Under the pieces are notes generated by a model. That model was given only the letters and a program-made list of their open reading frames with translations, was not told the DNA's origin and did no database searches. A program made the translations under genes and the position numbers. From positions 1-5,039 of IMG/VR virus record IMGVR_UViG_3300045988_011343: a DNA stretch of 5,039 nucleotides; one strand, 5' to 3'. Origin of the DNA: a virus. Of the stretch, positions 56-5,039 are shown one piece after another. The first letter of the stretch is position 1. Every line of letters starts with the position of its first letter.

Positions 56-376
56 ACGGCGAAGATTTTTCATGAAAGTCTGATGAAATTTTTTGCTTAA
101 ACTTCTATCTGACGGCAAATGATAATCGTCGAACGTGCAAGTAACGAAGTAAGCTGAAGACGAAGTACGGGCTTCGTGAACAGCTCTGACAGCCCATTGA
201 CGAGAATTTTCAAGCCGACAGCCGATACATTGTTTGCAAGAGCAACGAATGAAACGGCTATCATTAGCAAGCTCAGGGTGGGAAGCAAGGCTGCCGTAGA
301 AGCTATAATGCTGCTTGCCATTTTTCGTGGTAGCTCCTTCGACCGGGTACATGAGGATAGGATTATAACACACCAT
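1..376 (-). CDS. VP4: Replication initiation protein VP4 (HUH rolling-circle Rep), N-terminal part; continues at 4984 on the circle
   Basis: My own translation of the - strand, frame open to the window edge (absent from the ORF track because no stop lies in the window): MVCYNPILMYPVEGATTKNGKQHYSFYGSLASHPELANDSRFIRCSCKQCIGCRLENSRQWAVRAVHEARTSSSAYFVTCTFDDYHLPSDRSLSKKFHQTFMKNLRREYGSGIRFLGCGEYGELHA.... The ATG is at 374-376, preceded by AGGTGA (382-387) with 5-nt spacing, and there is an in-frame stop upstream at 419-421. CxxCxGCRL...SR.WA and FVTCTFDD (Rep motif 1) are typical of gokushovirus VP4. Joined length is 376+536 = 912 nt, giving 303 aa plus a stop. Confidence 0.9.
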   Translation of the reverse strand, partial: MVCYNPILMYPVEGATTKNGKQHYSFYGSLASHPELANDSRFIRCSCKQCIGCRLENSRQWAVRAVHEARTSSSAYFVTCTFDDYHLPSDRSLSKKFHQTFMKNLRREYGSGIRFLGCGEYGELH

Positions 377-393
377 ATTGATCACCTGTACCG

Positions 394-422
394 ATTGTAT
401 CAGGATTAGATCAGAATGTCAA
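394..422 (-). promoter_or_regulatory. Sigma70/SigA-like promoter upstream of VP4: TTGACA-N17-TACAAT
   Basis: The - strand reads TTGACA (422-417), then a 17-nt spacer (416-400), then TACAAT (399-394), then cggtacAGGTGAtcaatATG. The -35 box overlaps the TGA stop of the Arg-rich ORF. Confidence 0.5.
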
Positions 423-529
423 ATCCTAAATCCACCTCGACCTACTCTTTTGAAATTTCTGCGGCGAGATTTGGAGGTGCGCCGAAAAAGACGGCGAGAA
501 CCACGCTTAGATAATTTTCGACGTCTCAT
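419..529 (-). CDS. 36-aa arginine-rich DNA-binding/packaging protein (phiX174 J-like; ORF8/VP8-like of gokushoviruses)
   Basis: This ORF is not in the supplied track because it is too short. ATG 527-529 to TGA 419-421 translates as MRRRKLSKRGSRRLFRRTSKSRRRNFKRVGRGGFRI. It has 14 Arg and 4 Lys (50% basic) and no acidic residues. GGAGG lies 8 nt upstream. Its ATG overlaps the TGA of the upstream ORF (ATGA). The position between VP2 and VP4, and an N-terminal MRRRK.SKR..RR.F..T with a C-terminal RGG(F/I)R(I/L), match the small basic proteins I recall from gokushoviruses. Confidence 0.8.
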   Translation of the reverse strand: MRRRKLSKRGSRRLFRRTSKSRRRNFKRVGRGGFRI

Positions 530-765
530 TTATCGTCCCTCCAGGAACCGAAAAAACGGCTAGTTTTCTTAGAATCGCTCTTATTAACAACCGGCTCAAC
601 AAGTTGCGCAACATCGGTCTGAAAGTCCGAAGCAACTTTTTTCGCAGTGACAGTATTTGAAGAAGCTCTACCTTTCAATGCTTCAATCAAGTCTACAACT
701 TCCTGAATGAAAGGAACAACAACAGTGACGATGAAAGTCAGAATCATAGTAGTTTTGTTGGACAT
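526..765 (-). CDS. 79-aa hypothetical protein with a single N-terminal transmembrane helix (function unknown; candidate lysis or membrane protein)
   Basis: MSNKTTMILTFIVTVVVPFIQEVVDLIEALKGRASSNTVTAKKVASDFQTDVAQLVEPVVNKSDSKKTSRFFGSWRDDK. The ATG at 763-765 is preceded by AGGAG (774-778) with 8-nt spacing, directly after the VP2 stop TAA (779-781). A hydrophobic stretch at about residues 6-20 is followed by a charged tail. The track's 102-aa version starts at a TTG inside VP2 with no SD, so I use the ATG. The stop is TGA at 526-528. Confidence 0.7.
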   Translation of the reverse strand: MSNKTTMILTFIVTVVVPFIQEVVDLIEALKGRASSNTVTAKKVASDFQTDVAQLVEPVVNKSDSKKTSRFFGSWRDDK

Positions 766-778
766 ATATACCACTCCT

Positions 779-1465
779 TTATTTAAAAATATAACCAATA
801 CCACGAAGAATATGGCCAAGGCCTGAATTGCCAACGCCTAACGAGTCATAGAAATCAGCTTCCTGCTTCGAAAGACGAGCATTCTGGGAAGCGAAGCTCG
901 CGGCAGAATTAGACTGATTAGCTGAAGCTATATTAGAAAGTATGCCTGAAGAAAGATAGGATCCTTGAAGTCTTAGATTCTGCAGTTCCTGATCCATACG
1001 CTGCAGCTCGTAGCCAAGACGTTTTTCGTATGTCTGCTCGCGAAGATTAAGATCGTTCGCGAGAATACCGTTTTCAAGAACTATACCATGGGTCCTCTGA
1101 CGCACAGAATCGGCTTCTGCGGCGTTTTTATCAATTTGCGAACCGGCAAGATGCTCGGCATTCTTCGCCTGGCGTTCAGCGGCACTAGCGGATCTAGCAG
1201 AGTTCATAGTAGAACCGATATCACTCATGCCAACAGAAGCAGCTGAAGCTCCAGCTATAGAACCGCCTATACCATTAGTGGCAGCAAGAATAGGATTGAG
1301 ACCAGCTTGGCGCATATCATCGACAGCCCACTGATAACGATGTTTATAGTTCTCGACGTTCCAAGCGTTAGCCTGTGCGGCATTAGCGGAATTATAATGG
1401 TTCTGGACTGCAGAGTCCAGAACAGAACCAGCAACACTACCTAATGTATCGGAGAGCCATGACAT
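779..1465 (-). CDS. VP2: Minor capsid / DNA pilot protein VP2
   Basis: The 228-aa ORF has its ATG at 1463-1465, with AGGAG 8 nt upstream and 10 nt after the VP1 stop. The N-terminal third contains ...NVENYKHRYQWAVDDMRQAGLNPILAA..., the RYQ..V.DM..AGLNP.LA signature of gokushovirus VP2. The rest is low-complexity A/S/G/N/Q-rich, as is usual for VP2. Confidence 0.88.
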   Translation of the reverse strand: MSWLSDTLGSVAGSVLDSAVQNHYNSANAAQANAWNVENYKHRYQWAVDDMRQAGLNPILAATNGIGGSIAGASAASVGMSDIGSTMNSARSASAAERQAKNAEHLAGSQIDKNAAEADSVRQRTHGIVLENGILANDLNLREQTYEKRLGYELQRMDQELQNLRLQGSYLSSGILSNIASANQSNSAASFASQNARLSKQEADFYDSLGVGNSGLGHILRGIGYIFK

Positions 1466-1480
1466 ATAACCAACTCCTTT

Positions 1481-3205
1481 CTAGAAATGGTCAACAAGGC
1501 CGGGCGTACCGAACATAGGCATAGGACGCACAGTAGTATAACGGAAGCCTATGTCGAGCAAGAACTCAGGCTCACTGGGAACAGCGATAACGCGATCAAT
1601 AGGCGGGTTTTCAACAATAAACTCTTCGTTGAGAGTAGGAGCGTTTTTGAAAAACTGCGACAGGTGCCATAGGTCAAGATTACCACCAGTTACAGAGCTA
1701 CGGAATTTTCCCGTAATCTGCGAAGGTTTATAGCGGTATTCGGCATAACGTTCTTGATATCCAAAAACAGTAGTATCAGCTTCAGTACCCTGCGCATAAA
1801 TCTCACGAAGTTCAATAGCCTGTTCACCAAGATGGGCGAATGTCGGCCAATAGAAATCGTATACCGTAGAACGAAGCCACATCTTATTGATGCCTTGCTG
1901 ATAAGTTAAATCGGCACGGGCACAGACGAAGCCTATAATATAGCCATGCTCGACGAAAGATTTGGTGAAACCATGGAACTTAGAAGCAGTAACACCATAA
2001 GCTGAAAGATTACCTTGAGGGGAAGTGTCATCGGTCGCGGAAGTCTGAGCGATTGGATTAACGTTAACCATCTTCGTGAAACTACCGAGGAACTCAGGAC
2101 GCTGAAGACGAGCGTCCGGAGAAACAACGCCGAAGAAAGAGCGAAGCACTTCTGTATAACGGCTACCACCACGAGCAAGGCGTTCATAGAACTTCTGCAT
2201 CTGAAAAGCAGTACGAAGACTGTTAATCGTGAAAATGCTAGAGGAATCCAAATCAGCGTAAGCAGATTTAGAAAGCCATGAAGAACCGGGTTGGGCAGTG
2301 ACAGTAGCTAAACCGGAGCCATTCACAGAATGACCAGCTATAGAGACGCTATAACCACCTTGGTAGTTCAATGTGCCGTTTCCGGTATAGACACTATGAA
2401 CGCCGCCATCTTCAGACAGCTGAGCAGCGCCTAAGCTATTATTAGACTGCTGAACGAAATAGCCTGAAACAGGCGAAGGGTCAACTAGAGTAGCGGTACC
2501 GGCCAGGCCTATAGATACACCGGGTCCTTTCTGTGTCCAGGGAAGGGCCGAAGTAAAGTAATCATGGCGCTTACCACGAGGGGGGCACGCGAAGCCAGGA
2601 TAAGCATCAGTGGAAGAAGAATTAACAACCCAAGAAGGTTGCTCAGAAAGACGACTAATGTCAATCACTCGATTAGCGTCGCCTTTTTCGATTTTCACAG
2701 ATTTCTGCAGGTTTTCATCTCGAAACCATTCGTTCCAGATTAGATAGACGGCGCGAAATGGAAGAGCATTAATGCCGGACAAATTATTGATGGTGTTGAC
2801 AGGAAGGCCGAAATAGTCCCATAGAGAACCGACCAGTGAATTATTAATAGAACTAGAAGCGGAAATAGTTGGGATGACGTAATCAGTACTATCATCAGGG
2901 TCTTCCTGCTCAAAACAGAAGTTCTGCCAATGTTCCCATACTAGGCGGTTGGGGACGAAGAAGAAGAACCAATCGAGATATATATTGTCCATAATAGGCT
3001 TAACCGGGGTAGCTAGGCGAGCGAAGTAATTGACAGACATCCTAGTAGTATCGCCAGGCAGTACTTCATCCACGAACACAGGGATAAGCTTTCCTGAATT
3101 GAAAGTTGTCTTATAGACGTGCGAGCGGTCGAACTTCGTCCTACGCATATACATTGCAGGAGCATCGCTGAAGCGATGTCCTCTAACTCGAATATTACGA
3201 GCCAA
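1481..3205 (-). CDS. VP1: Major capsid protein VP1 (phiX174 F-like jelly-roll with gokushovirus-type insertion loop)
   Basis: This is a 574-aa ORF. Conserved blocks are FDRSHVYKTTFNSGKLIPVFVDEVLPGDT, INSLRTAFQMQKFYERLARGGSRYTEVLRSFFGVVSPDARLQRPEFLG, and C-terminal VENPPIDRV. The start is TTG (3203-3205), preceded by AAGGTGA (3210-3216) 4 nt upstream. The N-terminal length before FDRSH (24 aa) fits the family. The stop is TAG at 1481-1483. Confidence 0.93.
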   Translation of the reverse strand: MARNIRVRGHRFSDAPAMYMRRTKFDRSHVYKTTFNSGKLIPVFVDEVLPGDTTRMSVNYFARLATPVKPIMDNIYLDWFFFFVPNRLVWEHWQNFCFEQEDPDDSTDYVIPTISASSSINNSLVGSLWDYFGLPVNTINNLSGINALPFRAVYLIWNEWFRDENLQKSVKIEKGDANRVIDISRLSEQPSWVVNSSSTDAYPGFACPPRGKRHDYFTSALPWTQKGPGVSIGLAGTATLVDPSPVSGYFVQQSNNSLGAAQLSEDGGVHSVYTGNGTLNYQGGYSVSIAGHSVNGSGLATVTAQPGSSWLSKSAYADLDSSSIFTINSLRTAFQMQKFYERLARGGSRYTEVLRSFFGVVSPDARLQRPEFLGSFTKMVNVNPIAQTSATDDTSPQGNLSAYGVTASKFHGFTKSFVEHGYIIGFVCARADLTYQQGINKMWLRSTVYDFYWPTFAHLGEQAIELREIYAQGTEADTTVFGYQERYAEYRYKPSQITGKFRSSVTGGNLDLWHLSQFFKNAPTLNEEFIVENPPIDRVIAVPSEPEFLLDIGFRYTTVRPMPMFGTPGLVDHF

Positions 3206-3227: not shown

Positions 3228-3267
3228 AAACCTAAGAATTATACTAAAGCAAATCATTCTTAGGTTT
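3228..3267 (-). other. AT-rich stem-loop B in the VP3-VP1 spacer (12-bp perfect stem, 16-nt loop)
   Basis: AAACCTAAGAAT (3228-3239) is the exact reverse complement of ATTCTTAGGTTT (3256-3267). The loop is tatactaaagcaaatc. Confidence 0.6.
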
Positions 3268-3279
3268 TAGTTTATTTTT

Positions 3280-3328
3280 GCGTCACCTACGCCAGTTACA
3301 TCAAGTAAGTAACTGGCTTCGGTGACGC
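3280..3328 (-). other. GC-rich interrupted stem-loop A directly after the VP3 stop (8 bp + 3x3 internal loop + 9 bp, 9-nt loop)
   Basis: The - strand reads GCGTCACC gaa GCCAGTTAC ttacttgat GTAACTGGC gta GGTGACGC. Arm pairs are 3280-3287/3321-3328 and 3291-3299/3309-3317. On the coding strand it is followed by AAAAATAAA, not a U-run, so it is not a canonical intrinsic terminator. Confidence 0.75.
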
Positions 3329-3811
3329 CTATTTGGGTGTTTCTTCATTATTATGTTCTAAAGTGTTACTTTTTTCTTGTGTTTGTTCACTATTTACGGA
3401 CTGTTGTGGTTTATCAAAGGTACGATTGCTACCATACAGACCTTGTTGTTGAAGATAATCGAGCGTTTCAGGATTGTTCAACTGGCTGATGAAATTCATT
3501 GGATCATGACCGAATTTAGCACGAACGTAAGCGGGCAGGCTATAGAATTCTTCACGAACTCCAGAGACAAGTTCGAGAGCAGTACTGTAGTCACCGGGAA
3601 GCGTTGCATCTCCGAACTGCAGATAAGCGTATTGCGAACTATCGCCGAGATCCAGAGTGGCTATACCTTTCTGACCATCTGCATACTTATTGACGATGTA
3701 GTTGATATCAGTTTCATCCTTTTCATCCTGAATCGTAAGGGAGGGCATAGTGAATTCAATGCCGCAATGGTCATGTCCTTCTACAGGATCGTAAGCTGTT
3801 TTGAACTTCAT
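3329..3811 (-). CDS. VP3: Internal scaffolding protein VP3
   Basis: MKFKTAYDPVEGHDHCGIEFTMPSLTIQDEKDETDINYIVNKY...LPAYVRAKFGHDPMNFISQL...: 160 aa counted from the ATG at 3809-3811. The consensus SD AAGGAGGTGA (3817-3826) lies 5 nt upstream. The track's GTG start at 3820 sits inside that SD, so I reject it. The MKFKT.YD start, the SLT.QD..DE.DIN.I block and LPA..R..F..DP..F are typical of the VP3 scaffold of Chlamydia-phage-type microviruses. The stop is TAG at 3329-3331. Confidence 0.85.
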   Translation of the reverse strand: MKFKTAYDPVEGHDHCGIEFTMPSLTIQDEKDETDINYIVNKYADGQKGIATLDLGDSSQYAYLQFGDATLPGDYSTALELVSGVREEFYSLPAYVRAKFGHDPMNFISQLNNPETLDYLQQQGLYGSNRTFDKPQQSVNSEQTQEKSNTLEHNNEETPK

Positions 3812-3861
3812 AATTTTCACCTCCTTTCGCAGGCGCCTAGACGCGGCGGGCGTAGCGCATC

Positions 3862-3896
3862 AAAAAAAGGGCGATCTCCGTGAGATCGTCCTTTTT
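3862..3896 (-). terminator. Rho-independent terminator-like hairpin between VP5 and VP3
   Basis: The - strand reads aaaaaGGACGATCTCacgGAGATCGCCCTTTTTTT. It has a 10-position stem with one A.C mismatch and is followed by a run of 7 T (3862-3868). An A-run on the other flank gives it a bidirectional shape. Confidence 0.6.
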
Positions 3897-3913
3897 CTGA
3901 TACGCTCTACATT

Positions 3914-3942
3914 ATAGTATCATTTAGTCGAGTCATTGTCAA
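3914..3942 (-). promoter_or_regulatory. Sigma70/SigA-like promoter at the 3' end of VP5, pointing into VP3-VP1-VP2: TTGACA-N17-TACTAT(AAT)
   Basis: The - strand reads TTGACA (3942-3937), then a 17-nt spacer (3936-3920) containing the VP5 stop, then TACTAT (3919-3914). This overlaps a perfect TATAAT (3916-3911) at 20-nt spacing. Confidence 0.45.
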
Positions 3943-4210
3943 GATCCAATACATAATCTACGGCGCGACCAACCATAACAGGAATGCGGGATTCGTCAGA
4001 ACCTTCAATATAATAACGGCCATTAATATCGCCAAGGTTACCGACATAATATAAACTAAAGTCTTCAGGATAGCTATTAATAAGCGTTTTATCATCGTTA
4101 ACTAAACCTTCGAAAGCTCGCAGCGCAAGCATGTCATTGTGGTAGACCTGTGGAGGGCTGAACTGTTCAGCCTTGGAGTCATAAATGGAATAGAGTCTCA
4201 GCGGAACCAT
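3920..4210 (-). CDS. VP5: VP5-like small non-structural protein
   Basis: 96 aa: MVPLRLYSIYDSKAEQFSPPQVYHNDMLALRAFEGLVNDDKTLINSYPEDFSLYYVGNLGD.... The pattern Y.(I/V)YD.K.E.F..P......A.R.F...VN......P.D(F/Y).L(F/Y)..G matches gokushovirus VP5/ORF5 proteins as I recall them, and the position between VP4 and VP3 is canonical. The start is uncertain. AGGAG (4211-4215) abuts the ATG (4208-4210) with 0-nt spacing. An in-frame CTG at 4199-4201 sits 9 nt from the SD. Confidence 0.75.
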   Translation of the reverse strand: MVPLRLYSIYDSKAEQFSPPQVYHNDMLALRAFEGLVNDDKTLINSYPEDFSLYYVGNLGDINGRYYIEGSDESRIPVMVGRAVDYVLDLDNDSTK

Positions 4211-4418
4211 CTCCTTTTCTAAATGCGACTAAATACCTACGAATCATGAGATATAGCGTAGCTGATATGACATAATAGTCATCATCAAGGCGAATAACTC
4301 TAGAATCATCAGGCTTAAGGCGGTACGCGGCATATTTGCTGCCGCGAAAAGAATAATTAAATAGAATATTACGCTTGTTACAGAAATTTTCAACAGATTC
4401 CAATTCACTAATAGGCAT
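4179..4418 (-). CDS. 79-aa hypothetical protein between VP4 and VP5 (no recognisable family)
   Basis: MPISELESVENFCNKRNILFNYSFRGSKYAAYRLKPDDSRVIRLDDDYYVISATLYLMIRRYLVAFRKGDGSAETLFHL. It lies on the coding strand and fills the VP4-VP5 gap. The ATG is at 4416-4418, with GAGGTG (4419-4424) abutting it. Its last 32 nt overlap the VP5 start. There is no motif I can name. Confidence 0.5.
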   Translation of the reverse strand: MPISELESVENFCNKRNILFNYSFRGSKYAAYRLKPDDSRVIRLDDDYYVISATLYLMIRRYLVAFRKGDGSAETLFHL

Positions 4419-4436
4419 CACCTCATTTCTGATTTA

Positions 4437-4465: not shown

Positions 4466-5039
4466 GCTTTCGGCCAAGAAAATGCTTATATTTACCTTCC
4501 TGAACACGGCAGCGGTCAACAAGCCGCTCATAAGTATTATTCTCCAGATTATGAAGCATCTTTTCAATACGATTATTACGAATGAATTCCATCCAGTGAG
4601 GATGCGTTTCATCGAATTTATTATCGTAATAACGAGGAGGACGCATCTTCTTACCGTTAATGACAACGAAATCATTAGCATAGCACTCCTCACCATGCTC
4701 TTCAAGCCATTTACCGCCTATACCGGGACGATTGGATGCCAACATAAACTCAGGCGTGCGGCCATTATAATGGGCAGCAGCTCTACTGCCGGTCTGTTTC
4801 TTCACTATGTAACGCGCGACGTAGGCAGCAGCATCGAAACTGAAATCACCAATAAGGTGCATACCGTATTTCCAGATTTTCGAAAAACGAGGAGAAGTAT
4901 AAGTATTATAACCGTCTGTACGGAACCGAAAAATTTTGTCGCCAAAATCAATATTAAACAATATATAATGATAATGGGGACGAGCATGAAGTTCACCATA
5001 TTCACCACAGCCGAGAAAGCGAATACCACTGCCATACTC
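4449..5039 (-). CDS. VP4: Replication initiation protein VP4, C-terminal part (4985-5039 duplicates 1-55)
   Basis: The track ORF 4449..4961 begins at an internal TTG. The frame stays open upstream to the window end: EYGSGIRFLGCGEYGELHARPHYHYI-LFNIDFGDK.... The HUH motif is RPHYHYILF, with HYH at 4968-4976. The two-tyrosine catalytic motif is AAYVARYIVKK (Tyr codons 4821-4823 and 4809-4811), the same arrangement as the phiX174 gene A protein motif YVAKYVNKK. The stop is TGA at 4449-4451. Confidence 0.9.
   Translation of the reverse strand, partial: EYGSGIRFLGCGEYGELHARPHYHYILFNIDFGDKIFRFRTDGYNTYTSPRFSKIWKYGMHLIGDFSFDAAAYVARYIVKKQTGSRAAAHYNGRTPEFMLASNRPGIGGKWLEEHGEECYANDFVVINGKKMRPPRYYDNKFDETHPHWMEFIRNNRIEKMLHNLENNTYERLVDRCRVQEGKYKHFLGRKLDNVL
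4985..5039. repeat. Terminal redundancy, copy 2 (identical to 1-55)
   Basis: Same 55-mer as nt 1-55. It lies inside the VP4 coding frame and encodes ...EYGSGIRFLGCGEYGELHA.... Confidence 0.97.

Follow-up and report, generated by a model that had tools for sequence, protein, structure and literature searches.

A constrained, lineage-specific small gene directly after VP2 in gut gokushoviruses encodes a putative membrane protein and candidate lysis effector

In the human gut, gokushoviruses rank with the most abundant ssDNA phages, and the literature offers no account of how they exit their hosts. The window, by which we mean the whole stretch of 5,039 nt that was analysed (IMG/VR record IMGVR_UViG_3300045988_011343), is a complete circular gokushovirus genome of 4,984 nt from the human gut. 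Between the genes for the DNA pilot protein VP2 and for a J-like protein, here called VP8 after the nomenclature of PMC7062461, lies a reading frame of 79 codons, ORF79, and the locus is made up as follows.

526..765, minus strand: coding sequence of ORF79, 79 aa plus stop, a member of phrog_23638, with its ATG at 765 and its TGA at 528-526; protein MSNKTTMILTFIVTVVVPFIQEVVDLIEALKGR...SRFFGSWRDDK
779..1465, minus strand: gene for the DNA pilot protein VP2 (phrog_8693, E 2.4e-79), upstream neighbour of ORF79
419..529, minus strand: gene for VP8, a J-like, Arg-rich DNA-binding protein of 36 aa, downstream neighbour of ORF79
774..779, minus strand: Shine-Dalgarno (SD) sequence AAGGAG of ORF79, 8 nt before the ATG and abutting the VP2 stop codon (781-779)
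526..542, minus strand: ORF79/VP8 junction, with the VP8 SD GGAGG (542-538) inside ORF79 codons 75-77 and an ATGA stop/start overlap at 529-526

The preliminary description of this DNA had placed the gene between VP2 and the J-like gene and had given it an SD of its own, and both statements are confirmed by the profile match of VP2, by the J-like gene downstream and by the AAGGAG at 779-774. It had also called the gene non-overlapping, which is slightly off, since the last 4 nt are shared with the start of VP8; in some relatives the end of VP2 also overlaps the start of ORF79 by 8 nt. In a PHROGs scan of the eight stand-alone ORFs, six were given replication, VP5, scaffold, capsid or pilot roles, VP8 and ORF79 matched families without assigned function, and ORF80 matched none. 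ORF79 is the only stand-alone ORF in the genome with a transmembrane (TM)-like segment.

The match of ORF79 to phrog_23638, a PHROGs family of unknown function that is found only in gut gokushoviruses, runs over the full length of the protein (residues 1-79 to profile positions 1-79 of 79, E 7.8e-49, 165 bits). The family comprises 653 protein clusters at 90% identity, every one on microvirus-sized contigs, and only 30 clusters at 50% identity among 1.84 billion representatives; its members are 79-101 aa long. Among deposited phages the gene is confined to 20 records, each from a gut or faecal sample, and in about half of the deposited relatives it was left unannotated by annotation pipelines. 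Where the gene is present it always lies directly after VP2, within a VP1-VP2-(ORF79)-VP8 structural block. It is absent from the sister gokushoviruses L165, L166 and L169, whose VP1 is about 52% identical, and from the Escherichia gokushovirus prophages with the six-gene arrangement of EC6098, in which variable non-coding sequence separates VP2 from VP8 (PMC7062461). As judged by this distribution, ORF79 is lineage-specific and stands outside the gokushovirus core set (VP1-VP5, VP8). Across gokushoviruses the VP2-VP8 junction is a variable slot, with differing small ORFs or none. The 104-aa ORF of L172 resembles ORF79 in being small, with a TM-like segment and its own SD, directly upstream of the J-like gene, but is non-homologous and has a stronger TM segment (KD 2.45). 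An ORF of 36-46 aa between VP2 and the J-like gene of L165, a Phascolarctobacterium faecium prophage, likewise has a TM-like segment, but this is C-terminal and the ORF is again non-homologous to ORF79. The prophage of P. faecium DSM 14760 (VP1 52% identical, without ORF79) was the only true one found; contigs longer than one genome were considered as host prophages and rejected, as they are head-to-tail or palindromic dimers.

Purifying selection across related genomes, which the preliminary description had named as a check on the gene, was found. With loci chosen on VP1, not on ORF79, codon alignments gave a dN/dS of 0.078 for ORF79; the values in the same sample were 0.065 for VP4, 0.10 for VP1 and VP3, 0.11 for VP8, 0.17 for VP5, 0.19 for VP2 and 0.23 for ORF80. 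An earlier value of 0.043 was biased because the loci had been selected on ORF79 itself, and is replaced by the one given here. By this measure the constraint on ORF79 is comparable to that on the replication gene VP4. The same ATG and stop are kept in 121/121 unique nucleotide copies, and the gene is intact in 75 of 80 VP1-selected relatives, which is 75 of the 76 that can be assessed, the remaining five being four copies cut by contig ends and one frameshifted near the C-terminus. Absence or frameshift in otherwise syntenic relatives, which had been put forward as evidence against the gene, is thus not the pattern within its own lineage. On these codon and copy counts, ORF79 is a real gene, far beyond chance, and under purifying selection like that of core genes. 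Across lineages its N-terminal 32 residues retain 59-78% identity, as compared with 35-42% for VP4, 34-62% for VP2 and 41-60% for VP8, and the evolutionary rate of this block is as slow as that of the capsid protein. Such conservation would fit a partner that itself evolves slowly.

The segments of the protein are as follows.

706..753, minus strand: codons 5-20 (TTMILTFIVTVVVPFI), a 16-residue uncharged hydrophobic core and putative TM segment, with I8, L9, F11, P18 and F19 invariant
664..759, minus strand: codons 3-34, one continuous helix predicted by AlphaFold2 (pLDDT about 87-94 over residues 1-30)
565..663, minus strand: codons 35-67, a polar linker predicted with low confidence or as disordered, its length (30-55 residues) and sequence varying across the family
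550..561, minus strand: codons 69-72 (SRFF), a C-terminal motif of the form [aromatic/small]-[S/R]-R-F-[L/F/I/W], then a short basic tail

The N-terminal block of the family is almost invariant (I8, L9, F11, P18, F19, D25), and according to the AlphaFold2 model and the conservation the core continues into an acidic amphipathic segment, QEVVDLIEALKG, which contains the invariant D25. In codons 5-20 synonymous variation is normal (about 0.2) and the amino acids are invariant, and the constraint is therefore on the protein. At the other end, S69, R70 and F71 are invariant in the family alignments A1 and A2, the C-terminal motif is present in 15/15 cluster representatives, and L007 encodes SRF as AGT AGA TTC; the use of different codons for this motif across clades therefore points to selection at the protein level. 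The hydrophobic N-terminal helix with a proline inside it and the basic end of the tail, both noted previously, hold up well: Pro18 is present and is invariant in the family, and the last 15 residues have a net charge of +3. Alignments and structure prediction together establish a real, lineage-specific gene, the product of which is under strong constraint and is built in three parts.

That this product is a single-pass membrane protein, as first described, is borne out in part. The conserved hydrophobic helix, with its core of 16 uncharged residues, occurs in every member, with KD19 values of 1.6-2.1 (2.07 in the window protein); by the same measure phiX174 E has 24 uncharged residues and a KD19 of 2.79. 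The Wimley-White sum of ORF79 (-4 to -8), on the other hand, does not separate it from soluble proteins, as the controls VP1 and ORF80 match it, and the TM call is plausible but marginal on these scores. The core is short and includes two or three Thr/Ser as well as the Pro, and the conserved acidic residues E22 and D25 follow it directly. Together with the matching soluble controls, these features would suit a soluble helical protein of the cytoplasm that oligomerises, or binds a protein of phage or host, through its N-terminal helix. One-sided helical conservation, as of a binding face, was not found in the helix (periodicity index 0.6-1.2), and conservation is instead all-round, as it would be in a buried core. 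However, a KD19 of about 1.6 or higher in all members speaks for a membrane segment, and the protein offers no second hydrophobic element that could bury the helix, the rest being polar and predicted to be disordered, and as such we consider a soluble protein to be quite improbable. A Sec signal peptide would be another reading of the same block, with which K4 and the h-region would be compatible. A cleavable signal peptide is disfavoured, because the candidate -1 residue varies (A/S/M/D), the helix model is unbroken to residue 34, and the block is the most conserved of the protein.

GGAG is present at -14..-5 of the ORF79 ATG in 123/124 unique relatives, other clades have SDs of the AGGAGG or GAGGTG type, and the strength of the ORF79 SD is that of the SDs of structural genes. 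The ATGA overlap with VP8 is found in 123/124 close relatives and in L001, but is absent from other clades, in which the gap between ORF79 and the J-like gene is 10-218 nt. The translational coupling to the J-like gene that had been proposed thus holds in the clade of the window and in L001, does not extend to the other clades, and is, on gene spacing, clade-specific. A strong SD, coupling to VP8 in this clade, an invariable position after VP2 in the structural block and constraint at the level of core and structural genes would all fit a virion-associated, assembly or DNA-delivery accessory, for example a membrane-active co-factor of VP2 or a small internal protein. In such a protein the helix would either be packed into a protein interface or insert at entry into the membrane of the host, with the aromatic-basic C-terminus binding DNA or the inside of the capsid. 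No strong hydrophobic segment occurs in the VP2 of this phage (KD19 maximum 1.05), and in phiX174 the attachment of proteins B and J to the coat protein is through C-terminal aromatic residues. Against this, the presence of ORF79 does not track the hydrophobicity of VP2, and a linker of free length would be unusual for a fixed capsid component. A VP2-ORF79 fusion ('Rosetta stone') was found in no relative, the apparent 'VP2' matches being 8-nt overlaps, and sister lineages and cultured gokushoviruses form virions without ORF79 (PMC7062461). A role in the virion or at entry is therefore one that we regard as unlikely, if far from negligible; were it correct, ORF79 would be a further part of the virion or of the entry machinery of gokushoviruses.

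Small hydrophobic proteins of microviruses need not be lytic, as phiX174 K illustrates, and ORF79 could similarly be a non-lytic membrane accessory, acting in K-like modulation of burst size, in superinfection exclusion, or as an anchor for replication or assembly. K resembles ORF79 in being a small, hydrophobic or helical, non-structural microvirus protein with a possible membrane location, but K is encoded by an overprinted gene and can be dispensed with, whereas ORF79 has a stand-alone gene under strong constraint, and no homology between the two was detected (hhalign probability 0.9%). The variable slot at the VP2-VP8 junction, non-coding in the Escherichia prophages (PMC7062461), would be compatible with an accessory gene. 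Nevertheless, constraint as strong as that on the replication protein is unexpected for a dispensable accessory or exclusion gene, PADLOC defence and exclusion models gave no convincing match to ORF79 (best E 0.006, 13.6 bits, '4TM effector'), and no integration or lysogeny features were seen in its lineage, the long contigs of which are assembly dimers rather than prophages. A non-lytic accessory is accordingly rather improbable in our view.

Searches with ORF79 gave no match in Pfam-A at E<=1, nothing significant in NCBIfam, in PDB sequences or by Foldseek against PDB and BFVD, and no holin family in PHROGs, Pfam or NCBIfam. PHROGs, Pfam and hhalign scans found no endolysin, peptidase or E homologue in the genome. 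The absence of an E-type lysis gene from gokushoviruses, which the preliminary description had noted, is in agreement with the literature, which reports them to be without a peptidoglycan-synthesis-inhibitor lysis gene of the phiX174 type (PMC7062461), and a few gokushovirus lineages are reported to have acquired peptidases (PMC7062461; PMC3394797; PMC9239249). Neither a published function for the ORF79 family nor a lysis gene for gokushoviruses was found in the literature searched. A real, constrained gene with a proline-containing helix, in a genome with no lysin or E homologue and in a group for which the literature has this gap, is therefore a legitimate candidate for a lysis or membrane role, as originally proposed, although its TM segment is marginal and it has no homology to E. 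With its hydrophobic N-terminal helix, ORF79 is the best stand-alone candidate for a lysis function, one that is not known from this phage group.

Known single-gene lysis proteins and holins are generally small, with one TM-like segment and a basic C-terminus. The E protein of phiX174, an inhibitor of MraY that depends on the host chaperone SlyD, is like ORF79 encoded by a microvirus, is of similar size (91 aa), and has an N-terminal hydrophobic helix with a conserved proline and a polar, basic C-terminal part, with the helix conserved and the remainder variable. However, E is overprinted in the +1 frame of the scaffolding gene whereas ORF79 is stand-alone with a strong SD, and E is without both the acidic juxtamembrane helix and the C-terminal SRF motif. 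The E-like size and architecture described earlier are thus a likeness of architecture, in a small protein with an N-terminal helix and a proline, and not of descent: hhalign of alignment A2 against E of NC_001422 gave a probability of 0.4% over 7 aligned columns. The single-gene lysis proteins of ssRNA phages (LysM or Sgl-M, which target MurJ, and MS2 L) are also small, with one TM-like segment, and belong to very small genomes that encode no muralytic enzyme. They are unrelated to ORF79 in sequence, and are usually overprinted, fast-evolving and variable in position, whereas ORF79 has a gene of its own, one of the best conserved of the genome. The architecture of ORF79 is compatible with that of a single-TM holin, with small size, one TM-like helix, a charged basic C-terminus and presumed late expression in common, but neither an endolysin partner anywhere in the genome nor a holin family match accompanies ORF79.

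Our leading reading, to which we give a probability of about 0.4, is that ORF79 is a bitopic membrane protein and most likely a host-lysis effector, analogous but not homologous to E; membrane insertion, topology, the existence of a partner and the lysis function are inferred. ORF79 would be a small single-pass (bitopic) protein of the cytoplasmic membrane, encoded at the distal end of the transcript of the structural genes, next after VP2. Residues 5-20 would form the short hydrophobic core, leading into an acidic amphipathic helix that would extend to about residue 34, and the variable, disordered linker would tether the short aromatic-basic C-terminal motif (SRF[F/L/I]). The nearly invariant helix (ILxF...PFI...D) may dock onto a conserved membrane partner, which could be an envelope-precursor enzyme or flippase, or copies of ORF79 could together form a holin-like lesion, and the C-terminal motif may provide a second contact. 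The restriction of ORF79 to one lineage fits what is seen of host-specific lysis genes, as does the finding of unrelated small TM ORFs in the same slot of some sisters and of none in others.

Several features count against lysis. Known single-gene lysis proteins tend to evolve fast and phiX174 E is translated poorly, whereas ORF79 is among the most conserved proteins of its genome and its SD is as strong as those of structural genes. Its setting among virion genes, and its coupling in this clade to the gene of a 60-copy DNA-binding protein, would suit a structural protein made in stoichiometric amounts just as well. No lysis protein shows homology to ORF79, its TM segment is short and of no more than moderate hydrophobicity, and the conservation of the helix is all-round rather than one-faced. 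Related gokushoviruses manage without ORF79 (L166 and L169; EC6098, PMC7062461). It is tentatively possible, though on balance doubtful, that ORF79 is the founding member of a new family of single-gene lysis proteins ('protein antibiotics') without relation to E, which would make it the first lysis gene identified in the Gokushovirinae. The invariant ILxF...PFI...D helix of such a protein antibiotic would bind a conserved envelope-biogenesis membrane protein of a gut Firmicute or Negativicute, and the unrelated small TM ORFs beside the J-like gene elsewhere would then mark a lysis-gene locus of the subfamily. If ORF79 is a lysis protein, the search for protein antibiotics against anaerobic gut bacteria would gain a new point of attack in its target. 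As a widespread and constrained family (653 clusters) with defined invariant residues (I8, L9, F11, P18, F19, D25 and the C-terminal SRF), ORF79 makes gokushovirus exit a directly testable question.

The true lysis gene could instead be overprinted in another gene, as E is in D, with ORF79 doing something else. Three hydrophobic ORFs in the +1 frame are overprinted lysis candidates.

321..97, minus strand: hydrophobic +1-frame ORF in VP4, 74 aa
5035..4805, minus strand: hydrophobic +1-frame ORF in VP4, 76 aa
4095..3958, minus strand: hydrophobic +1-frame ORF in VP5, 45 aa

These ORFs are open in 59-62 of 63 circular relatives, which are non-independent samples, as compared with 8-18 expected from synonymous randomisation, and for control alternative ORFs that are likewise open in the window the figure is only 4-12 of the 63. 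Of the two VP4 ORFs, one retains its ATG in 55 and the other in 62 of the 63 relatives, the 5' half of VP4 shows elevated third-position conservation, and comparable +1 ORFs occur at the same VP4 motif in distant lineages. Nevertheless, a conserved Tyr-Gly (TAT GGN) dictates the ATG, the hydrophobicity is a forced consequence of reading T-rich third positions as second positions, and the openness is partly explained by the high conservation of Rep motifs. Convincing SDs were not found for these ORFs, their lengths range over 39-111 aa between lineages, and the L170 version is not hydrophobic. An overprinted lysis gene is as such an explanation to which we give little credence. Over ORF79 itself the +1 frame is open in 52/63 relatives as compared with 20.5 expected, and frameshifted database entries part from the others at the A6 run (637-642) within the linker. 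As the cause of the low synonymous variation in ORF79 codons 48-79, a +1 gene overlapping ORF79, or frameshifting at this run, is very improbable: there is no conserved start, the other clades have no conserved slippery site, and a stop interrupts the frame in L164. RNA structure was likewise rejected as the cause of the low variation in codons 48-79, since the fold is no better than shuffles (z = 0.62). These codons are part of a conserved block of ~750 nt that spans VP8 and the intergenic region and reaches into the 5' half of VP4.

The window is a whole gokushovirus genome, a circle of 4,984 nt, and repeats its first 55 nt at its end (1-55 = 4985-5039); every gene lies on the minus strand. 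The closest deposited genomes, at 84-86% nucleotide identity, are 'Human gut gokushovirus', 'Gokushovirus WZ-2015a' and 'Microviridae sp.' records from human, pig and dog faeces. The neighbours of ORF79, the 79-aa gene under study, were assigned by PHROGs with E values of 1e-24 to 1e-216, and the gene order is:

start 376, wrapping to 4449, minus strand: VP4, replication protein (PHROGs)
4421..4179, minus strand: ORF80, an unannotated 80-aa ORF
4210..3920, minus strand: VP5 (PHROGs)
3820..3329, minus strand: VP3, scaffold (PHROGs)
3205..1481, minus strand: VP1, capsid (PHROGs)
1465..779, minus strand: VP2, pilot protein (PHROGs)
765..526, minus strand: ORF79 (phrog_23638)
529..419, minus strand: VP8, J-like Arg-rich 36-aa gene

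ORF79 starts with an ATG at 765, and the AAGGAG located 8 nt before it directly adjoins the stop codon of VP2; its N-terminus TTMILTFIVTVVVPFI, with Pro18, and its basic tail ...KSDSKKTSRFFGSWRDDK are likewise as the preliminary description had them. The ATG is kept in 121/121 unique relatives and the SD in 123/124, and in one other clade the same SD precedes a GTG start. A longer TTG-initiated reading (102 aa, overlapping VP2) is unsupported, the conserved ATG and SD favouring 79 aa. ORF79 and VP8 are joined by an ATGA stop/start overlap, with the VP8 SD (GGAGG) inside ORF79 codons 75-77. A first dN/dS estimate of 0.043 was biased, its loci having been picked on ORF79 itself, and the ratio was therefore recalculated from codon alignments of 80 loci picked on VP1. 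In this sample ORF79 has a dN/dS of 0.078 (dS 0.68), a constraint similar to that of VP4 (0.065) and a ratio below those of VP1 (0.10), VP3 (0.10), VP8 (0.11), VP5 (0.17), VP2 (0.19) and ORF80 (0.23). Of the 80 loci, 75 carry the frame described at the outset intact; four are truncated by contig ends and one is frameshifted near the C-terminus. Amino acids in codons 6-30 are invariant with normal synonymous variation (~0.2), and the constraint therefore falls on the ORF79 protein. Judged by these patterns of substitution, ORF79 is clearly a real gene that is important to the phage.

Family alignments (A1 and A2) and cluster representatives give the protein a three-part layout. An N-terminal block of ~31 residues, M-S-x-K-x-T-x-I-L-T/A-F-[ILV]-x-S/T-x-x-x-P-F-I-Q/R-E/D-x-x-D-x-I, in which I8, L9, F11, P18, F19 and D25 are invariant, is followed by a polar linker, 30-55 residues long and freely variable in length and sequence, and then by a C-terminal motif, [aromatic/small]-[S/R]-R-F-[L/F/I/W], which stands 2 to 8 residues short of the C-terminus, as a rule with basic residues after it. 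The C-terminal motif is encoded by different codons in other clades and is therefore likewise selected at the protein level. Across lineages the N-terminal block is 59-78% identical, the corresponding values being 35-42% for VP4, 34-62% for VP2, 41-60% for VP8 and 53-74% for VP1. AlphaFold2 gives a confident helix at residues 3-34 (pLDDT 87-94), a weaker helix at 37-55 and a disordered tail, and its pTM of 0.34 argues against a compact fold. The conserved helix positions form two clusters (residues 8-11 and 18-20) and are spread around the helix rather than lining a single face.

Every family member has an uncharged core of exactly 16 residues (5-20), with K/R4 before it and Q/R21-E/D22 after it. 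The maximum Kyte-Doolittle mean over 19 residues lies between 1.58 and 2.07 across the family, near or above the classical threshold of 1.6, in contrast to phiX174 E, which reaches 2.79 with a 24-residue run. The Wimley-White octanol sum is -4 to -8 kcal/mol, a score that does not discriminate, since the soluble controls VP1 and ORF80 reach it as well. The core has weak flanking charges (N-terminal side +1 or 0; directly C-terminal -2 to +1). From its sequence ORF79 is probably a membrane protein, although the call is marginal. The N-terminal block is the most conserved part of the protein and is modelled as an unbroken helix, which makes a cleavable signal peptide unlikely.

ORF79 belongs to phrog_23638, a family of unknown function, which it matches end to end. 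Homologues form 493 clusters at 90% identity in a single-sequence search and 653 in a profile search, all on contigs of ~5 kb or dimers of such. An exhaustive HMMER search of 1.84 billion 50%-identity representatives returned only 30 clusters, including several frameshifted or chimeric artefacts and one unrelated repeat protein. The family is present in only 20 of 50,697 deposited phages, all of gut or faecal origin and uncultured, with the homologue unannotated in about half of the records; its position is always the same, next after VP2 and ahead of the J-like gene. Several public 10-16 kb contigs carrying the window's phage (L179, L180) are head-to-tail or palindromic dimers, and as such assembly artefacts rather than prophages.

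The family extends to genomes with a VP1 just 53% identical (L164), and two loci at a similar VP1 distance (L166, L169) are without ORF79, VP2 being followed directly by VP8. ORF79 is also absent from L165, where an ORF of 36-46 aa fills the slot; it is unrelated and contains a hydrophobic segment. This locus is a complete prophage (5992-10275 of NZ_QLTS01000001.1, a 797-kb contig of the Phascolarctobacterium faecium DSM 14760 isolate genome) with the gene order VP1-VP2-small ORF-VP8-VP4-VP5-VP3 and a VP1 52% identical to that of the window; it adjoins a gene whose product reads like LexA repressor, the junction lying between VP3 and VP1, and through it a related lineage of gokushoviruses has a host in culture, a Negativicute. 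A distant gokushovirus, L172, has an unrelated 104-aa ORF with its own SD directly upstream of the J-like gene (5915-6229, or 429-743 of the circle), carrying a strong N-terminal TM segment, IATVCINTLIVIFYFIAWI (Kyte-Doolittle 2.45). This suggests that small membrane proteins repeatedly occupy the slot before the J-like gene. The VP2-VP8 interval of Escherichia gokushovirus prophages is a variable non-coding stretch (PMC7062461). The pattern of presence and absence among related gokushoviruses marks ORF79, on these comparisons, as specific to its lineage and fixed in a slot of variable content, not as a pan-gokushovirus core gene.

No library searched gave a functional match for ORF79; it is not a member of the phiX174 E family, and K is unrelated. 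We regard it as a small phage-encoded membrane-type protein and a candidate single-gene lysis effector, as first proposed, and give the lysis reading a probability of roughly 40%; the case for it is circumstantial but coherent. The phage must exit its host and no muralytic enzyme was found in its genome, which argues for such a function, and gokushoviruses are stated to be without a phiX174-type inhibitor and to have peptidases in some lineages only (PMC7062461, PMC3394797, PMC9239249). ORF79 is the only stand-alone ORF in the window with a TM-like helix, it shares its layout of N-terminal helix with proline, replaceable middle and basic end with phiX174 E and many single-gene lysis proteins, and its lineage restriction would fit a host-specific function. 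In contrast, its SD equals the SDs of the structural genes in strength, it is located among virion genes, its evolution is unusually slow for a lysis gene, its TM segment is short, and sister lineages live without it. The main rival reading, which we consider rather unlikely, makes ORF79 an accessory that works with VP2 in the virion, in assembly or in entry; natural VP2-ORF79 fusions were looked for among relatives and none was found. Late expression of a lysis protein had been argued from coupling to the DNA-packaging gene VP8, and this coupling holds in the window's clade and in locus L001 but not in other clades, where the gap is 10-12, 65 or 218 nt. That ORF79 may work like E is a testable hypothesis, and the gene is of interest as a direct experimental way into how gokushoviruses lyse their hosts.

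Since phiX174 E is itself overprinted, every alternative-frame ORF on the coding strand was tested in 63 circular relatives (~82% identical). Three hydrophobic ones stay open in nearly all of these relatives:

321..97, minus strand: +1 ORF in VP4, 74 aa, MASSIIASTAALLPTLSLLMIAVSF...
5035..4805, minus strand: +1 ORF in VP4, 76 aa, MAVVFAFSAVVNMVNFMLVPIIIIYCL...
4095..3958, minus strand: +1 ORF in VP5, 45 aa, MIKRLLIAILKTLVYIMSVTLAILMAV...

These are open in 59-62 of the 63 relatives (8-18 expected under synonymous randomisation), control ORFs open in the window being open in only 4-12; the ATGs of the two VP4 ORFs are kept in 55/63 and 62/63, and distant lineages have similar +1 ORFs at the same Rep motif. 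However, much of this signal is forced by the host frame, the ATG by a conserved Tyr-Gly and the hydrophobicity by T-rich third positions, and the region is highly conserved. We therefore think it very improbable that they are E-like genes, host-frame conservation and AT-rich third positions largely explaining them.

Synonymous variation is near zero in ORF79 codons 48-79 (526-625, minus strand), compared with ~0.2 in codons 6-30. The low-variation codons are part of a ~750-nt conserved block, which includes the VP8 SD and extends across VP8 and the intergenic region into the 5' half of VP4. RNA folding does not account for the low variation (z = 0.62). The +1 frame in the 3' part of ORF79 (507-635, 42 aa from TTG) is open in 52/63 relatives, 20.5 being expected, and frameshifted database entries (P0206, P0207) enter it at an A6 run (637-642); it has no conserved start codon, and no slippery site is conserved in other clades. 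The block also contains a promoter:

422..394, minus strand: near-consensus sigma-70-type promoter, TTGACA-17-TACAAT with extended -10 TG, 11/12 matches

It overlaps the VP8 stop and precedes the VP4 start by ~18 nt. Conservation in the genome is highest here (column conservation 0.98-0.99), and the element is probably the early promoter for VP4.

VP1 apparently starts with TTG (3203-3205, minus strand) behind GAAGGTGA; alignments with most relatives begin at residue 1 or 3 of this reading, and the non-ATG start is therefore probably real. ORF80 (4179-4421, minus strand), between VP4 and VP5 and overlapping the VP5 start by 32 nt, has no match in PHROG, Pfam or NCBIfam; found in 76/80 VP1-selected relatives (dN/dS 0.23) and called as a gene by independent assemblies, it is a second orphan gene of the window's lineage. 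Both large intergenic regions contain long inverted repeats (3228-3328 and 3854-3906):

3280-3299 / 3309-3328: 20-nt arms, VP3-VP1 interval
3228-3242 / 3253-3267: 15-nt arms, VP3-VP1 interval
3854-3878 / 3882-3906: 25-nt arms, VP5-VP3 interval

Both regions are highly conserved (0.94-0.98), and the repeats could act as terminators or attenuators, or as hairpins for the complementary-strand origin of the ssDNA genome.
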